Positions 1 through 9,000 of a stretch of DNA of 64,000 nucleotides are shown piece by piece. Every line of letters starts with the position of its first letter. Position 1 is the first letter of the stretch. The notes beneath the pieces are model-generated. The model saw only the letters and a program-made list of their open reading frames with translations. It was not told where the DNA came from and searched no databases. The position numbers were made by a program, and so were the translations under genes. Origin of the DNA: Escherichia coli (GTDB lineage: Bacteria; Pseudomonadota; Gammaproteobacteria; Enterobacterales; Enterobacteriaceae); the NCBI RefSeq assembly GCF_044324785.1, contig NZ_CP172127.1, one strand, 5' to 3'.

Positions 1-2
1 AA

Positions 3-305
3 ATGACGGTCAGATATTATATCAGTTCTGCTGATTTAACCGCAGAGAAGTTCGCCACAGCAATCCGAAACCACTGGCACGTGGAGAATAAGCTGCACTG
101 GCGTCTGGACGTGGTAATGAATGAAGACGACTGCAAAATAAGAAGAGGAAATGCAGCAGAATTATTTTCAGGGATACGGCACATCGCTATTAATATTTTG
201 ACGAATGATAAGGTATTCAAGGCAGGGTTAAGACGTAAGATGCGAAAAGCAGCCATGGACAGAAACTATCTCGCGTCAGTCCTTGCTGGGAGCGGGCTTT
301 CGTAA
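3..305 (+). mobile_element. ISAs1-family (H-repeat-associated) transposase, C-terminal fragment running off the window start
   Basis: ORF 3..305 translation (…[43 protein letters not shown]…) resembles the conserved C-terminus of ISAs1/H-repeat transposases; N-terminus lies outside the window. Confidence 0.55.
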
Positions 306-502
306 TCTTTCCCTGCGTTAACCGCCCCTCCTTGACACCACGCTTTTGTCTACATTCTACGCAAACGGCAACTTTTATAACCAGTGTAAAAATAACGTGC
401 CGCAATAGTCATACCTATTAATGGTAAAAAGCTGTCACAATTCATAAAAAACCTTAATATACGCCACCCTAAACATAACCAGCGTTAATGTAAGGTTTTT
501 GT

Positions 503-2740
503 GTGGACTGGCTTCTTGATGTTTTTGCTACCTGGCTCTACGGCTTAAAAGTAATCGCGATAACGTTAGCGGTCATCATGTTCATCAGCGGGCTGGACGA
601 TTTTTTTATTGATGTCGTCTACTGGGTACGCCGCATTAAACGCAAGTTGAGTGTTTATCGCCGCTACCCGCGAATGAGTTACCGCGAACTGTATAAACCA
701 GATGAAAAACCGTTAGCGATTATGGTTCCGGCGTGGAATGAAACGGGCGTCATCGGCAATATGGCCGAGCTGGCGGCGACCACGCTCGACTATGAAAACT
801 ATCATATCTTTGTTGGCACCTACCCCAACGACCCCGATACTCAGCGTGATGTTGACGAAGTGTGCGCTCGCTTCCCAAACGTGCATAAGGTAGTCTGCGC
901 GCGTCCTGGCCCCACCAGCAAAGCCGACTGCCTGAACAACGTGCTGGACGCCATCACCCAGTTTGAGCGTAGCGCCAATTTCGCTTTCGCTGGTTTTATT
1001 CTGCATGACGCCGAAGACGTAATTTCACCGATGGAATTGCGTTTGTTCAACTATCTGGTCGAGCGTAAAGATCTGATTCAGATCCCGGTATACCCATTCG
1101 AACGCGAATGGACGCACTTCACCAGCATGACTTACATTGATGAGTTTTCAGAACTGCATGGCAAAGATGTTCCGGTGCGTGAAGCCCTCGCCGGACAGGT
1201 GCCCAGCGCAGGCGTCGGCACCTGTTTCAGCCGCCGCGCCGTGACCGCACTGTTAGCTGACGGTGACGGTATTGCTTTCGACGTGCAGAGTCTTACTGAA
1301 GATTACGACATTGGTTTCCGCCTGAAAGAAAAAGGTATGACGGAAATTTTTGTCCGTTTTCCGGTGGTGGACGAAGCCAAAGAACGCGAGCAGCGTAAAT
1401 TTTTACAGCACGCGCGGACGTCAAACATGATCTGCGTGCGCGAATATTTCCCTGATACCTTTTCGACTGCGGTTCGACAAAAATCTCGCTGGATCATCGG
1501 CATTGTTTTCCAGGGCTTTAAAACCCATAAATGGACCTCCAGCCTGACGCTGAACTACTTTCTCTGGCGCGACCGCAAAGGGGCAATCAGTAACTTTGTC
1601 AGCTTCCTCGCGATGCTGGTGATGATCCAGCTTTTGCTGTTACTGGCGTATGAAAGTTTGTGGCCCGATGCCTGGCATTTCCTTTCTATTTTCAGCGGCA
1701 GCGCATGGTTAATGACCCTGCTGTGGCTAAACTTTGGTTTGATGGTTAACCGCATCGTGCAGCGGGTGATTTTTGTCACTGGCTACTACGGTCTGACGCA
1801 GGGGCTGCTATCTGTCCTGCGTCTTTTCTGGGGCAACCTGATTAACTTCATGGCCAACTGGCGCGCGTTAAAACAGGTACTTCAACACGGCGATCCACGT
1901 CGCGTCGCGTGGGATAAAACAACGCATGACTTCCCCAGCGTGACTGGCGATACCCGCTCGTTGCGCCCGTTAGGCCAAATTCTGCTGGAAAATCAGGTCA
2001 TCACTGAAGAACAACTCGATACAGCACTGCGTAATCGCGTCGAAGGTCTACGCCTGGGCGGTTCAATGCTGATGCAGGGGCTGATTAGCGCCGAACAGCT
2101 GGCACAGGCGCTGGCAGAGCAAAACGGCGTGGCGTGGGAGTCGATCGACGCCTGGCAGATCCCTTCATCACTGATTGCCGAAATGCCGGCCTCCGTGGCG
2201 CTGCATTATGCAGTGCTGCCGCTGCGTCTGGAAAATGATGAGTTAATTGTCGGCAGTGAAGATGGTATTGACCCGGTTTCGCTGGCGGCCCTGACGCGTA
2301 AAGTCGGACGCAAAGTGCGTTACGTCATTGTTCTGCGCGGACAAATTGTCACGGGGTTACGTCACTGGTATGCACGCCGACGCGGTCACGATCCGCGGGC
2401 AATGTTGTACAATGCGGTTCAGCATCAGTGGCTCACGGAACAGCAGGCCGGTGAAATCTGGCGGCAATATGTGCCGCATCAGTTCCTGTTCGCCGAAATA
2501 CTGACCACGCTCGGTCATATTAATCGTTCAGCAATTAACGTGTTGTTATTGCGCCATGAACGCAGTTCTCTGCCGCTCGGCAAGTTTTTGGTCACCGAAG
2601 GCGTTATCAGCCAGGAAACGTTGGATCGCGTCCTGACAATTCAACGCGAATTACAAGTTTCGATGCAATCACTATTACTCAAAGCAGGTTTAAACACAGA
2701 ACAGGTTGCGCAACTGGAGTCCGAAAATGAAGGAGAATAA
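503..2740 (+). CDS. nfrB: Bacteriophage N4 adsorption protein B (family-2 glycosyltransferase, inner membrane)
   Basis: 745-aa ORF with GTG start; sequence and length match recalled E. coli NfrB; followed by nfrA with overlapping stop/start. Confidence 0.9.
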   Translation: MDWLLDVFATWLYGLKVIAITLAVIMFISGLDDFFIDVVYWVRRIKRKLSVYRRYPRMSYRELYKPDEKPLAIMVPAWNETGVIGNMAELAATTLDYENYHIFVGTYPNDPDTQRDVDEVCARFPNVHKVVCARPGPTSKADCLNNVLDAITQFERSANFAFAGFILHDAEDVISPMELRLFNYLVERKDLIQIPVYPFEREWTHFTSMTYIDEFSELHGKDVPVREALAGQVPSAGVGTCFSRRAVTALLADGDGIAFDVQSLTEDYDIGFRLKEKGMTEIFVRFPVVDEAKEREQRKFLQHARTSNMICVREYFPDTFSTAVRQKSRWIIGIVFQGFKTHKWTSSLTLNYFLWRDRKGAISNFVSFLAMLVMIQLLLLLAYESLWPDAWHFLSIFSGSAWLMTLLWLNFGLMVNRIVQRVIFVTGYYGLTQGLLSVLRLFWGNLINFMANWRALKQVLQHGDPRRVAWDKTTHDFPSVTGDTRSLRPLGQILLENQVITEEQLDTALRNRVEGLRLGGSMLMQGLISAEQLAQALAEQNGVAWESIDAWQIPSSLIAEMPASVALHYAVLPLRLENDELIVGSEDGIDPVSLAALTRKVGRKVRYVIVLRGQIVTGLRHWYARRRGHDPRAMLYNAVQHQWLTEQQAGEIWRQYVPHQFLFAEILTTLGHINRSAINVLLLRHERSSLPLGKFLVTEGVISQETLDRVLTIQRELQVSMQSLLLKAGLNTEQVAQLESENEGE

Positions 2741-5699
2741 CCTTAATCGCGTCATCGGATGGTCTGGTTTACTGCTGACGTCTTTATTGAGTACCAGCGC
2801 ACTCGCAGACAATATCGACACCAGCGCAGAAGAGCTGGGGCTGAGCGATTATCGCCATTTTGTTATTTATCCCCGTCTCGATAAGGCGCTGAAGGCACAG
2901 AAAAATAACGACGAAGCAACCGCCATCCGCGAATTTGAATATATACACCAGCAGGTGCCGGATAATATTCCGCTGACTTTATACCTTGCGGAAGCCTATC
3001 GCCATTTTGGTCATGATGCCCGGGCGCGGCTGTTGCTTGAGGATCAACTGAAACGTCATCCAGGAGATGCCCGACTTGAGCGCAGTCTGGCGGCTATTCC
3101 AGTTGAAGTGAAAAGCGTTACGACTGTTGAAGAACTGCTTGCCCAGCAAAAATCGTGCGACGCTGCGCCGACCCTGCGTTGTCGCAGTGAAGTCGGGCAG
3201 AATGCCCTGCGGCTGGCACAATTACCTGTCGCCAGAGCGCAACTGAACGATGCGACGTTTGCTGCATCGCCGGAAGGAAAAACGCTGCGAACCGATCTGC
3301 TGCAACGCGCAATCTACCTGAAACAATGGTCCCAGGCAGATACGCTATACAATGAAGCACGCCAGCAGAACACATTAAGCGCGGCAGAACGCCGTCAGTG
3401 GTTTGACGTGCTTCTTGCCGGGCAGCTGGACGATCGGATCCTGGCGCTGCAATCACAGGGGATCTTCACCGATCCGCAGTCATATATTACTTACGCGACC
3501 GCGCTGGCTTATCGTGGCGAAAAAGCACGCCTCCAGCGTTATCTCATTGAAAATAAGCCGCTGTTTACCACGGACGTACAAGAGAAAAGTTGGCTCTATC
3601 TGTTATCTAAATACAGCGTCAACCCCGTTCAGGCGTTGGCGAATTATACGGTACAGTTTGCCGATAACCGCCAGTATGTTGTTGGCGCGACGCTACCGGT
3701 GCTGTTAAAAGAAGGTCAGTACGACGCAGCGCAAAAACTGCTCGCCACCCTCCCCGCCAATGAAATGCTTGAGGAGCGTTATACCGTTAGCGTAGCGACC
3801 CATAACAAGGCTGAAGCTCTGCGTCTGGCACGATTGCTGTATCAGCAAGAACCGGCAAATCTTACCCGCCTGGATCAACTGACCTGGCAACTGATGCAGA
3901 ACGAGCAGTCACGCGAAGCTGCCGATTTATTGCTGCAACGCTATCCTTTCCAGGGCGATGCGCGTGTCAGCCAGACTTTAATGGCGCGACTGGCGTCTCT
4001 GCTGGAAAGTCATCCTTACCTGGCAACTCCGGCGAAAGTGGCAATTTTATCGAAACCCTTACCGCTGGCAGAGCAACGTCAGTGGCAAAGTCAGTTGCCG
4101 GGTATTGCAGATAATTGCCCGGCAATAGTTCGCTTGCTGGGCGATATGTCGCCTTCCTACGATGCCGCCGCCTGGAACCGTCTGGCAAAGTGTTATCGGG
4201 ACACGCTACCCGGTGTGGCGTTGTATGCATGGCTTCAGGCCGAACAACGACAACCGAACGCCTGGCAACATCGTGCGGTAGCCTATCAGGCGTATCAGGT
4301 TGAAGACTACGCCACCGCACTGGCGGCCTGGCAGAAAATCAGTCTTCACGACATGAGCAATGAGGATCTGCTTGCTGCTGCCAATACCGCCCAGGCGGCA
4401 GGAAATGGTGCGGCTCGCGATCGCTGGCTTCAGCAGGCAGAACAACGTGGGCTGGGAAACAATGCCCTCTACTGGTGGCTGCATGCGCAACGTTACATTC
4501 CTGGTCAGCCGGAACTCGCACTGAACGATCTCACGCGCTCAATCAATATTGCGCCTTCTGCCAACGCTTACGTTGCGCGGGCGACAATTTATCGCCAACG
4601 TCATAATGTCCCGGCGGCGGTGAGTGATTTGCGCGCCGCTCTGGAACTGGAACCGAATAATAGCAACACCCAGGCAGCGCTTGGTTACGCCTTGTGGGAT
4701 AGCGGTGATATCGCACAGTCGCGGGAAATGCTCGAACAGGCGCATAAAGGGCTACCGGACGATCCGGCACTTATCCGACAACTGGCCTACGTGAACCAGC
4801 GTCTGGATGACATGCCTGCGACGCAGCACTACGCCCGGCTGGTGATTGATGACATTGATAATCAGGCGCTGATAACCCCACTGACCCCAGAGCAAAATCA
4901 GCAACGCTTCAATTTCCGCCGTCTGCATGAGGAGGTCGGTCGCCGCTGGACGTTCAGTTTCGATTCTTCTATCGGCTTGCGTTCCGGCGCAATGAGTACC
5001 GCTAACAATAATGTCGGCGGCGCAGCACCAGGGAAAAGCTATCGTAGCTACGGGCAACTGGAAGCCGAGTACCGCATCGGACGCAATATGCTGCTGGAAG
5101 GCGACCTGCTCTCGGTTTACAGCCGCGTATTTGCCGATACCGGAGAAAACGGGGTGATGATGCCGGTGAAAAATCCGATGTCCGGCACCGGTCTGCGCTG
5201 GAAGCCGCTGCGCGATCAGATCTTTTTCCTCGCCGTCGAACAGCAGTTGCCGCTGAACGGGCAAAATGGCGCATCCGATACCATGCTGCGCGCCAGCGCC
5301 TCATTCTTTAATGGCGGCAAATACAGCGACGAATGGCACCCGAACGGTTCAGGCTGGTTTGCCCAAAACCTGTACCTCGATGCGGCGCAATATGTCCGCC
5401 AGGATATTCAGGCGTGGACGGCAGACTATCGCGTAAGCTGGCATCAGAAGGTGGCGAACGGACAGACTATTGAGCCTTACGCTCACGTTCAGGACAACGG
5501 TTATCGTGATAAAGGCACTCAGGGCGCGCAGCTTGGCGGTGTCGGGGTCCGCTGGAATATCTGGACCGGCGAGACGCACTACGACGCCTGGCCGCACAAA
5601 GTCAGTCTCGGCATCGAATATCAACATACCTTTAAGGCGATTAATCAACGTAACGGAGAGCGCAACAACGCGTTTCTCACCATCGGAGTGCACTGGTAA
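2727..5699 (+). CDS. nfrA: Bacteriophage N4 adsorption protein A (outer membrane, TPR-containing)
   Basis: ORF 2706..5699; start placed at internal Met (MKENNLNRVIGW…) giving 990 aa with signal peptide; matches recalled NfrA. Confidence 0.9.
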   Translation: MKENNLNRVIGWSGLLLTSLLSTSALADNIDTSAEELGLSDYRHFVIYPRLDKALKAQKNNDEATAIREFEYIHQQVPDNIPLTLYLAEAYRHFGHDARARLLLEDQLKRHPGDARLERSLAAIPVEVKSVTTVEELLAQQKSCDAAPTLRCRSEVGQNALRLAQLPVARAQLNDATFAASPEGKTLRTDLLQRAIYLKQWSQADTLYNEARQQNTLSAAERRQWFDVLLAGQLDDRILALQSQGIFTDPQSYITYATALAYRGEKARLQRYLIENKPLFTTDVQEKSWLYLLSKYSVNPVQALANYTVQFADNRQYVVGATLPVLLKEGQYDAAQKLLATLPANEMLEERYTVSVATHNKAEALRLARLLYQQEPANLTRLDQLTWQLMQNEQSREAADLLLQRYPFQGDARVSQTLMARLASLLESHPYLATPAKVAILSKPLPLAEQRQWQSQLPGIADNCPAIVRLLGDMSPSYDAAAWNRLAKCYRDTLPGVALYAWLQAEQRQPNAWQHRAVAYQAYQVEDYATALAAWQKISLHDMSNEDLLAAANTAQAAGNGAARDRWLQQAEQRGLGNNALYWWLHAQRYIPGQPELALNDLTRSINIAPSANAYVARATIYRQRHNVPAAVSDLRAALELEPNNSNTQAALGYALWDSGDIAQSREMLEQAHKGLPDDPALIRQLAYVNQRLDDMPATQHYARLVIDDIDNQALITPLTPEQNQQRFNFRRLHEEVGRRWTFSFDSSIGLRSGAMSTANNNVGGAAPGKSYRSYGQLEAEYRIGRNMLLEGDLLSVYSRVFADTGENGVMMPVKNPMSGTGLRWKPLRDQIFFLAVEQQLPLNGQNGASDTMLRASASFFNGGKYSDEWHPNGSGWFAQNLYLDAAQYVRQDIQAWTADYRVSWHQKVANGQTIEPYAHVQDNGYRDKGTQGAQLGGVGVRWNIWTGETHYDAWPHKVSLGIEYQHTFKAINQRNGERNNAFLTIGVHW

Positions 5700-6590
5700 A
5701 TGCGTAAGTTCATTTTCGTATTGCTGACACTGCTTTTGGTCAGCCCTTTTTCCTTTGCGATGAAAGGTATTATCTGGCAACCACAAAACCGTGATAGTCA
5801 GGTTACCGATACCCAGTGGCAGGGGCTGATGAGTCAGTTACGTTTGCAAGGCTTCGATACCCTGGTTTTGCAATGGACCCGTTACGGCGATGCATTCACC
5901 CAGCCAGAACAGCGCGCGTTATTGTTTAAGCGTGCCGCAGCTGCGCAACAGGCTGGCCTGAAGCTGATTGTCGGGCTGAACGCCGATCCGGAATTTTTTA
6001 TACACCAGAAACAGTCATCCGCGGCGCTGGAAAGCTATCTTAATCGCCTGCTGGCTGCCGATCTCCAGCAAGCCAGATTATGGAGCGCCGCGCCTGGCGT
6101 AACGCCGGATGGCTGGTACATCAGCGCGGAAATTGACGACCTGAACTGGCGTAGCGAAGCCGCCCGTCAGCCTTTGCTAACATGGTTAAACAACGCGCAG
6201 CGGCTGATTAGCGATGTTTCAGCAAAACCGGTTTATATCAGTAGTTTTTTCGCCGGAAACATGTCGCCCGATGGCTATCGCCAACTGCTGGAACACGTTA
6301 AAGCAACCGGCGTTAATGTCTGGGTACAGGATGGCAGCGGCGTGGATAAACTTACTGCTGAACAGCGTGAACGTTATCTACAGGCCAGCGCCGATTGCCA
6401 AAGCTCCGCCCCAGCAAGCGGCATTGTTTATGAACTGTTTGTCGCCGGCAAAGGCAAAACCTTTACAGCGAAACCGAAACCGGATGCAGAGATCGCCTCG
6501 CTGTTAGCGAAACGTTCCTCTTGCGGTAAAGACACGCTCTATTTCTCTCTGCGCTATTTGCCCGTCGCACACGGCATTCTCGAGTATTAA
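5700..6590 (+). CDS. ybcH: Uncharacterized exported protein YbcH
   Basis: 296-aa ORF with N-terminal signal peptide, directly after nfrA stop (TAA-ATG); synteny nfrB-nfrA-ybcH-envY. Confidence 0.8.
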   Translation: MRKFIFVLLTLLLVSPFSFAMKGIIWQPQNRDSQVTDTQWQGLMSQLRLQGFDTLVLQWTRYGDAFTQPEQRALLFKRAAAAQQAGLKLIVGLNADPEFFIHQKQSSAALESYLNRLLAADLQQARLWSAAPGVTPDGWYISAEIDDLNWRSEAARQPLLTWLNNAQRLISDVSAKPVYISSFFAGNMSPDGYRQLLEHVKATGVNVWVQDGSGVDKLTAEQRERYLQASADCQSSAPASGIVYELFVAGKGKTFTAKPKPDAEIASLLAKRSSCGKDTLYFSLRYLPVAHGILEY

Positions 6591-6772
6591 ATCCCTTCCA
6601 GGTAAGTCGGGTACGACCTGACTTACCACTTTCGCTCTCGTCAGAATTCCATCAAGATTAATTGCTAAAAAGCATGCTAAAGAAAGAAGATCGTTATCGG
6701 CGAACGGGCCGATCACTCATGCAGGAAGCATAGATCCTTTGAGCGGAGTTTCTGATATCTGAGGAGTGCGAA

Positions 6773-7534
6773 ATGCAATTGAGCAGCAGTGAACCTTGCG
6801 TGGTGATCCTGACCGAAAAAGAGGTAGAGGTAAGCGTTAATAACCATGCCACGTTTACCCTTCCGAAAAATTACCTGGCCGCCTTCGCGTGCAACAATAA
6901 CGTCATTGAACTCTCAACGTTAAATCACGTATTAATCACCCACATCAACCGCAACATCATCAACGATTATCTGTTGTTTTTAAATAAGAACTTAACCTGT
7001 GTAAAGCCCTGGTCGCGGCTGGCTACCCCGGTTATCGCTTGTCATAGCCGTACACCGGAAGTGTTCCGGCTAGCCGCCAACCACAGCAAGCAGCAACCCA
7101 GCAAACCCTGCGAAGCGGAGTTGACGCGCGCATTGCTTTTTACCGTATTGTCTAACTTTCTTGAGCAATCGCGGTTTATTGCCCTACTGATGTATATCTT
7201 ACGCAGCAGCGTCCGCGACAGCGTCTGCCGCATTATTCAAAGCGATATTCAGCATTACTGGAATCTGCGAATTGTCGCCAGTTCGCTATGTTTAAGCCCC
7301 AGCCTGCTCAAAAAGAAATTAAAAAACGAAAATACCAGCTATAGCCAGATTGTCACAGAGTGTCGTATGCGTTACGCCGTACAGATGTTATTGATGGATA
7401 ACAAAAATATCACTCAGGTAGCGCAATTATGTGGCTATAGCAGCACGTCGTACTTTATCTCTGTTTTTAAGGCGTTTTACGGCCTGACACCGTTGAATTA
7501 TCTCGCCAAACAGCGACAAAAAGTGATGTGGTGA
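6773..7534 (+). CDS. envY: AraC-family transcriptional regulator EnvY (porin thermoregulation)
   Basis: 253-aa ORF with C-terminal AraC-type HTH (…ITQVAQLCGYSSTSYFISVFKAFYGLTP…); synteny next to ompT. Confidence 0.85.
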   Translation: MQLSSSEPCVVILTEKEVEVSVNNHATFTLPKNYLAAFACNNNVIELSTLNHVLITHINRNIINDYLLFLNKNLTCVKPWSRLATPVIACHSRTPEVFRLAANHSKQQPSKPCEAELTRALLFTVLSNFLEQSRFIALLMYILRSSVRDSVCRIIQSDIQHYWNLRIVASSLCLSPSLLKKKLKNENTSYSQIVTECRMRYAVQMLLMDNKNITQVAQLCGYSSTSYFISVFKAFYGLTPLNYLAKQRQKVMW

Positions 7535-7577
7535 AGGGCAAAGCGGAAACGGATAAGACGGGCATAAATGAAGAAGA

Positions 7578-7624
7578 AATGGCGCGCCCTGCAGGATTCG
7601 AACCTGCGGCCCACGACTTAGAAG
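7578..7624. repeat. 47-bp direct repeat identical to the 3' part of tRNA-Arg (57505-57551); distal attachment-site copy of the integrated element
   Basis: Exact 47-nt match read by eye (aatggcgcgccctgcaggattcgaacctgcggcccacgacttagaag) at both positions; identity breaks on both sides. Confidence 0.8.
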
Positions 7625-8046: not shown

Positions 8047-9000
8047 ATGCGGGCGAAACTTCTGGGAATAGTCCTGACAACCCCTATTGCGATCAGCTCT
8101 TTTGCTTCTACCGAGACTATATCGTTTACTCCTGACAACATAAATGCGGACATTAGTCTTGGAACTCTGAGCGGAAAAACAAAAGAGCGCGTTTATCTAG
8201 CTGAAGAAGGAGGCCGAAAAGTCAGTCAACTCGACTGGAAATTCAATAACGCTGCAATTATTAAAGGTGCAATTAATTGGGATTTGATGCCCCAGATATC
8301 TATTGGGGCTGCGGGCTGGACTACTCTCGGCAGCCGGGGTGGCAATATGGTCGATCAGGACTGGATGGATTCCAGTAACCCCGGAACCTGGACAGATGAA
8401 AGTAGGCACCCTGATACACAACTCAATTATGCTAACGAATTTGATCTGAATATCAAAGGCTGGCTCCTCAACGAACCCAATTACCGCCTGGGACTCATGG
8501 CCGGATATCAGGAAAGCCGTTATAGCTTTACAGCCAGAGGTGGTTCCTATATCTACAGTTCTGAGGAGGGATTCAGAGATGATATCGGCTCCTTCCCGAA
8601 TGGAGAAAGAGCAATCGGCTACAAACAACGTTTTAAAATGCCCTACATTGGCTTGACTGGAAGTTATCGTTATGAAGATTTTGAACTCGGTGGCACATTT
8701 AAATACAGCGGCTGGGTGGAATCATCTGATAACGATGAACACTATGACCCGGGAAAAAGAATCACTTATCGCAGTAAGGTCAAAGACCAAAATTACTATT
8801 CTGTTGCAGTCAATGCAGGTTATTACGTAACACCTAACGCAAAAGTTTATGTTGAAGGCGCATGGAATCGGGTTACGAATAAAAAAGGTAATACTTCACT
8901 TTATGATCACAATGATAACACTTCAGACTACAGCAAAAATGGTGCAGGCATAGAAAACTATAACTTCATCACTACTGCTGGTCTTAAGTACACCTTTTAA
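8047..9000 (+). CDS. ompT: Outer membrane protease OmpT (omptin family)
   Basis: 317-aa ORF with signal peptide; sequence matches recalled OmpT (MRAKLLGIVLTTPIAISSFA…). Confidence 0.9.
   Translation: MRAKLLGIVLTTPIAISSFASTETISFTPDNINADISLGTLSGKTKERVYLAEEGGRKVSQLDWKFNNAAIIKGAINWDLMPQISIGAAGWTTLGSRGGNMVDQDWMDSSNPGTWTDESRHPDTQLNYANEFDLNIKGWLLNEPNYRLGLMAGYQESRYSFTARGGSYIYSSEEGFRDDIGSFPNGERAIGYKQRFKMPYIGLTGSYRYEDFELGGTFKYSGWVESSDNDEHYDPGKRITYRSKVKDQNYYSVAVNAGYYVTPNAKVYVEGAWNRVTNKKGNTSLYDHNDNTSDYSKNGAGIENYNFITTAGLKYTF

Follow-up and report, generated by a model that had tools for sequence, protein, structure and literature searches.

The window analysed here, a stretch of 64,000 nucleotides of Escherichia coli DNA (contig NZ_CP172127.1), opens inside a reading frame that extends beyond its first base and stops shortly before nfrB. 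An earlier note, made from the letters of this stretch, read the frame as the remnant of an insertion sequence (IS) and proposed that an IS end so close upstream could influence nfrB expression and hence the levels of the phage N4 receptor. The locus therefore raises two questions: (i) what the element is, and whether it is in fact a remnant; and (ii) whether its presence beside nfrB is a peculiarity of this strain with consequences for transcription of the nfr genes.

The open frame at the window start (positions 1 to 305, + strand, in frame from base 3, stop codon TAA at 303-305) is the 3′ end of an H-rpt/ISEc1 (ISAs1-family) transposase ORF. Its visible part, at 3-305, specifies the C-terminal 100 amino acids of the protein and takes in the conserved C-terminal segment of the DDE domain. 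This segment alone suffices for the NCBIfam model NF033564, 'ISAs1 family transposase', which it matches over profile positions 250-314 of 314 (E=1e-27) with 97.2 bits, the curated cut-off being 70 bits. The same residues match Pfam DDE_Tnp_1 in its C-terminal third (profile positions 140-200 of 200; E=1.4e-8), and they are 100% identical to residues 279-378 of YhhI, the H-repeat transposase in RhsB of K-12. On these three grounds the ISAs1-type transposase 3′ end recognized in the earlier note is borne out. We also considered whether the frame might be a chance open frame or belong to a gene that does not encode a transposase, a reading that draws on the fact that only 100 codons are visible. 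The family match above the curated cut-off, the identity to the YhhI C-terminus and the annotation of full-length homologues in thousands of genomes all argue against it, and its probability is negligible.

Positions 1-315 are the right-hand quarter of a 1291-bp H-repeat (H-rpt/ISEc1), an ISAs1-family element with one DDE-transposase ORF and inverted repeats tipped by CAGGG. The right end was placed by aligning the window with H-rpt copies from K-12 (yhhI and ydcC), strain 120899 and strain N3: the likeness among copies at different loci breaks off exactly after ...TAATCTT(T/G)CCCTG, which is window base 315, the last base of the element. The right terminal inverted repeat (IRR) occupies 297-315 (reverse complement CAGGGAAAGATTACGAAAG); it overlaps the transposase stop codon, and 10 bp of the IS lie beyond that codon. 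The earlier note had recommended a search for a terminal inverted repeat within 306-502, and such a repeat was found, although it straddles the stop codon rather than lying deep in that interval. The left end, which is situated outside the window, was read only in N3 and other genomes, where the H-rpt copies start to agree at CAGGGAAAGATCA. Compared with the left end of the K-12 copies, the IRR is identical over its first 11 nt (CAGGGAAAGAT) and matches at 15 of the first 18, so that terminal inverted repeats are present at both ends of the element. The distance from CAGGG to CCCTG is 1291 bp in all six copies compared (N3, 120899, K-12 yhhI, K-12 ydcC, STO_Bone2 and 2012C-4502), and it is these copies, all outside the window, that place the element within the expected range of about 1.2-1.5 kb and give it one transposase ORF. 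A target-site duplication of 8-10 bp was also sought, and the 12-bp flanks were unrelated on the two sides in six of six copies. H-rpt copies that sit within Rhs loci usually lack such a duplication; as all six copies examined lack it, they give no evidence for transposition of H-rpt into the nfrB-side locus. H-rpt transposition has in fact never been observed (PMC3032704).

Of the ORF, only the last 305 bp fall inside the window, and the intactness of the element and its context were taken from N3 and other genomes. E. coli N3 (NZ_CP031609.1) is the nearest complete genome, with 2 mismatches in window positions 1-7624 and 3 in 57505-64000 (6,496 bases), which makes 5 mismatches over roughly 14 kb of flanks common to both; between these two blocks the window carries an extra 49.9 kb. 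Since only 2 of 7,624 and 3 of 6,496 bases differ on the two sides of this insertion, N3 is a valid proxy. A search with 9 kb had given the impression that there is no close relative (best match 98.9%), which was misleading owing to the prophage at argU, N3 being nearly identical on both sides of it. The block absent from N3, of about 49.9 kb at window 7625-57504, is inserted beside tRNA-Arg(tct) at 57507-57583 (argU, the DLP12 site) and is a lambdoid prophage; its first 24 kb, including tail and head genes, share 96-97% identity with lambdoid phages of Escherichia (Kati, PhiR26_1), and an ompT-like ORF is located within it at 8047-9000.

The element in N3 is present at its full length of 1291 bp with both ends, so that the truncation implied by the word 'remnant' is that of the window edge only. 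The upstream extension called for in the earlier note, carried out by proxy in N3, accordingly gives an element that is full length though probably defective. PGAP labels it 'ISAs1-like element ISEc1 family transposase'. Its codon 2 is TAA, and PGAP places the start at Met7, giving a product of 372 aa with 98% identity to YhhI; its Shine-Dalgarno sequence is AAGGAT, as against AAGGAG in other copies, and its left tip is TAGGA, as against CAGGG. Because of the TAA at codon 2, the weakened Shine-Dalgarno sequence and the mutated left tip, the N3 element is probably non-functional, and the H-rpt copy beside nfrB is most likely an inert passenger. In N3 the nfrB-proximal H-rpt is also preceded immediately by a second, tandem copy of its left 109 bp, 83% identical to the first (N3 positions 4916-5024 and 5026-5134); the distal left-end copy has retained CAGGG and, at 81% complementarity across 27 nt, is a better match to the right end than the proximal one.

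The gene order in N3 places the element at the edge of a larger structure. From cusA-cusB-cusF-cusC / cusR-cusS the order continues with vgrG, a DcrB-related gene, a frameshifted rhs gene and orphan toxin/immunity tips, and then with one ISAs1 copy and further tips, which are followed by the H-rpt and nfrB-nfrA-ybcH. The island of strain 120899 is organized in the same way; it has a single rhs gene and a single H-rpt, which contains an internal stop. The island genes, the H-rpt ORF and nfrBA-ybcH are all co-oriented. Judging from these two proxies, the island comprises an rhs core gene followed by orphan C-terminal tips, in the interval from cusS to nfrB. A Rhs locus between nfrB and cusS is listed in Table 3 of Jackson et al. 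2009 (PMC2935791), and rhsW3 of E. coli W lies at b0570-b0569, a locus absent from K-12 and B (PMC3032704). We conclude that the H-rpt is very probably the last module of this vgrG-rhs toxin island ('Rhs locus 4') between cusS and nfrB, and not an independent insertion by nfrB. Within the locus it would act as a repeated block of homology on the border of an Rhs element that undergoes recombination.

The H-rpt adjoins nfrB in 2,472 of 5,426 complete genomes (the median genome has 4 matches to the 520-bp query), and the island edge is present in about 2,660 of the 5,426, compared with about 2,314 that have the K-12-type empty junction. The island arrangement is thus an old polymorphism shared by approximately half of E. 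coli rather than an insertion peculiar to one strain.

Between the IS and nfrB, the distance from the transposase stop codon (305) to the GTG start (503) is 197 bp, in keeping with the figure of about 200 bp in the earlier note, and that from the IS end (315) to the GTG is 187 bp. The proximal 142 bp of this interval (361-502, + strand) are the nfrB upstream region and are 100% identical to the cusS-nfrB intergenic region of K-12, where the segment starts 7 bp past the cusS stop codon. The remaining 45 bp (316-360) are an island-specific spacer, defined by comparison with K-12, from which it is absent, and with long-form genomes. Most genomes have 116 bp at the spacer position; the missing 71 bp would fall directly against the IS end, between 315 and 316. 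As a single-copy segment, the 116 bp are found in 2,664 of the 5,426 complete genomes; 2,453 of these have the full length, with 92-100% identity. The short, 45-bp junction occurs in about 118 genomes, 5 with T at base 310 and 113 with G; a 40-mer query returned the 5, and the 113 were added by a second, 54-mer query, the 28-base megablast word and the SNP having hidden them from the 40-mer. The 71-bp segment of the long form is without promoter or terminator consensus, and its folding is unremarkable (z=-0.26). SNPs at window positions 310 and 324 flank the deletion junction, and all four of their combinations occur among short- and long-form genomes, suggesting that the island edge has undergone recombination or recurrent mutation.

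There is more than one scenario for the origin of the short spacer. The 45 bp could be the scar of an adjacent deletion mediated by the H-rpt transposase, in which case the element was once active at this site. The 71-bp loss starts at the IS terminus to within 1 nt, with a microhomology of a single C (1 nt); in STO_Bone2, the one short-form genome checked, the 71 bp are found nowhere else; and the long form exceeds the short form by far in number and is also more diverse (2,453 genomes at 92-100% identity versus about 118). An ordinary illegitimate deletion that ended by chance at the IS tip is an alternative, however, and the failure ever to observe H-rpt transposition (PMC3032704) also weighs against a transposase-mediated event, as do the four SNP combinations, which blur the history of the junction through recombination. 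We consider the transposase-mediated deletion unlikely. A further candidate, an independent H-rpt insertion 71 bp closer to nfrB, was rejected, because the 71 bp are absent from STO_Bone2, the sole short-form genome checked, rather than relocated in it.

Downstream of the junction, nfrB (503..2740, + strand) encodes a c-di-GMP-activated glycosyltransferase (NF008411, 1332.7 bits) and is followed on the same strand by nfrA (2727-5699) and ybcH (5700-6590). Its GTG at 503 is the start used by RefSeq in both N3 and K-12. In STO_Bone2, an island-bearing strain with the short spacer, nfrB (4188-6425) is annotated as a pseudogene with an internal stop.

Scans for sigma-70 consensus promoters and terminators found none in window positions 1-800, which take in the whole interval from the IS end to nfrB, and none in the long-form spacer; with relaxed criteria, searches for sigma-70 and sigma-28 promoters reached only 8-10 matches, the level of shuffled sequence, and an Rfam search of window positions 1-800 at E<=1 returned no family. 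Simple consensus scans of this kind miss many promoters. A perfect TTGACA is present at 332-337, in the island spacer and outside the IS, without a usable -10. An nfrB::lacZ fusion showed weak, post-exponential, FliA-activated expression (Junkermeier and Hengge, PMC8669469); as this sole published nfrB reporter spans -1499 to +0, with all of cusS included, the nfrB promoter is not located more finely than that fragment. In K-12, cusS contains a perfect sigma-28 -10 octamer, GCCGATAA, about 620 bp upstream of nfrB, with a poor -35 and a total of 12/16; with 17% of shuffles scoring as well, it may serve as a lead only. The octamer falls inside the FliA-dependent reporter fragment, and in island-bearing strains it is more than 10 kb from nfrB.

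Closer to the gene, an RNA hairpin is predicted at about 442-503, in which AAAACCUUAAUAU pairs with GUUAAUGUAAGGUUUU just before the nfrB GTG, over the likely Shine-Dalgarno sequence AAGG. The folding of 286-505 gives z=-2.1, and the hairpin lies within the leader that is identical to that of K-12. By this folding prediction, the hairpin might contribute to low nfrB expression.

Could the IS nevertheless be a recent, strain-specific insertion or remnant that changes nfrBA expression and phage N4 receptor levels, through an outward promoter or through polarity? The IS end is 187 bp from the GTG and co-oriented with nfrB, no terminator was found between them, and the promoter is mapped no more finely than to the -1499 to +0 fragment, all of which would suit such an effect. 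The same junction, however, is found in 2,472 of 5,426 genomes and is catalogued as a conserved Rhs locus; the 10 bp of IS past the stop codon contain neither a -35 nor a -10 consensus; the 142 bp adjoining nfrB are the same as in K-12; and there is no target-site duplication. A recent insertion of this kind is highly improbable.

With the H-rpt taken as the terminal module of the Rhs island, nfrB would be expressed from its own proximal region, with at most some unterminated read-through from the island in place of the cusS read-through that is possible in K-12. The proximal 142 bp are intact, but the island takes the place of the K-12 sequence farther upstream, and it may thus influence nfr transcription. 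The regulatory effect proposed in the earlier note finds no backing in the sequence; an effect of the IS or the island on nfrB is a speculative possibility, and 'no effect' would in turn be deduced from missing consensus motifs. Any island effect on nfr transcription would concern about half of the species rather than the source strain alone.

An H-repeat at the edge of a known Rhs locus, itself a known polymorphic site, is an already catalogued arrangement. The useful result is therefore a negative one, namely that the nfrB leader is untouched and that the appearance of a remnant is due to the window edge. A more far-reaching proposal would combine two ideas: that the island and its terminal H-rpt part nfrBA-ybcH from cusS sequences that aid nfr transcription in K-12, and that the 71-bp deletion is a fossil of H-rpt transposase activity. 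Taken jointly, we regard these as quite improbable. If they were true, the island-bearing strains, about 49% of E. coli, would express the N4 receptor glycan pathway differently, for example via read-through of the H-rpt ORF.

Finally, the element and its locus can be compared with known systems. The 1291-bp length, the CAGGG...CCCTG ends and the single 378-aa ORF are shared with the H-rpt copies of K-12 (yhhI in RhsB and ydcC in RhsE), as is a co-oriented position downstream of an rhs core and orphan tips; this size and these ends match the description of H-rpt/ISEc1 by C. W. Hill's laboratory. In contrast to the K-12 copies, the element resides in another Rhs locus (cusS-nfrB), which is empty in K-12, and in the copy of the N3 lineage codon 2 is TAA and the left tip is degenerate. 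Base 310, within the IRR, is T in the window and G in K-12 yhhI and ydcC, 120899 and STO_Bone2. Terminal inverted repeats of the ISAs1 family begin with CAGGG, and the element resembles family members such as ISAs1 of Aeromonas salmonicida and IS1358 of Vibrio cholerae in its size of about 1.3 kb and in a DDE transposase that fits the family model. It differs from ISAs1 and IS1358 in that no transposition of H-rpt has been observed (PMC3032704), and the nfrB-side copy has no target-site duplication. The locus as a whole is like Rhs locus 4 of Jackson et al. 2009 and rhsW3 of E. coli W, having the same flanking genes and the same combination of vgrG, rhs and C-terminal tips. Relative to these, the content of orphan toxin/immunity tips varies by strain, and the source lineage is distinguished by two ISAs1 copies in the island and by a spacer before nfrB that is 71 bp shorter.
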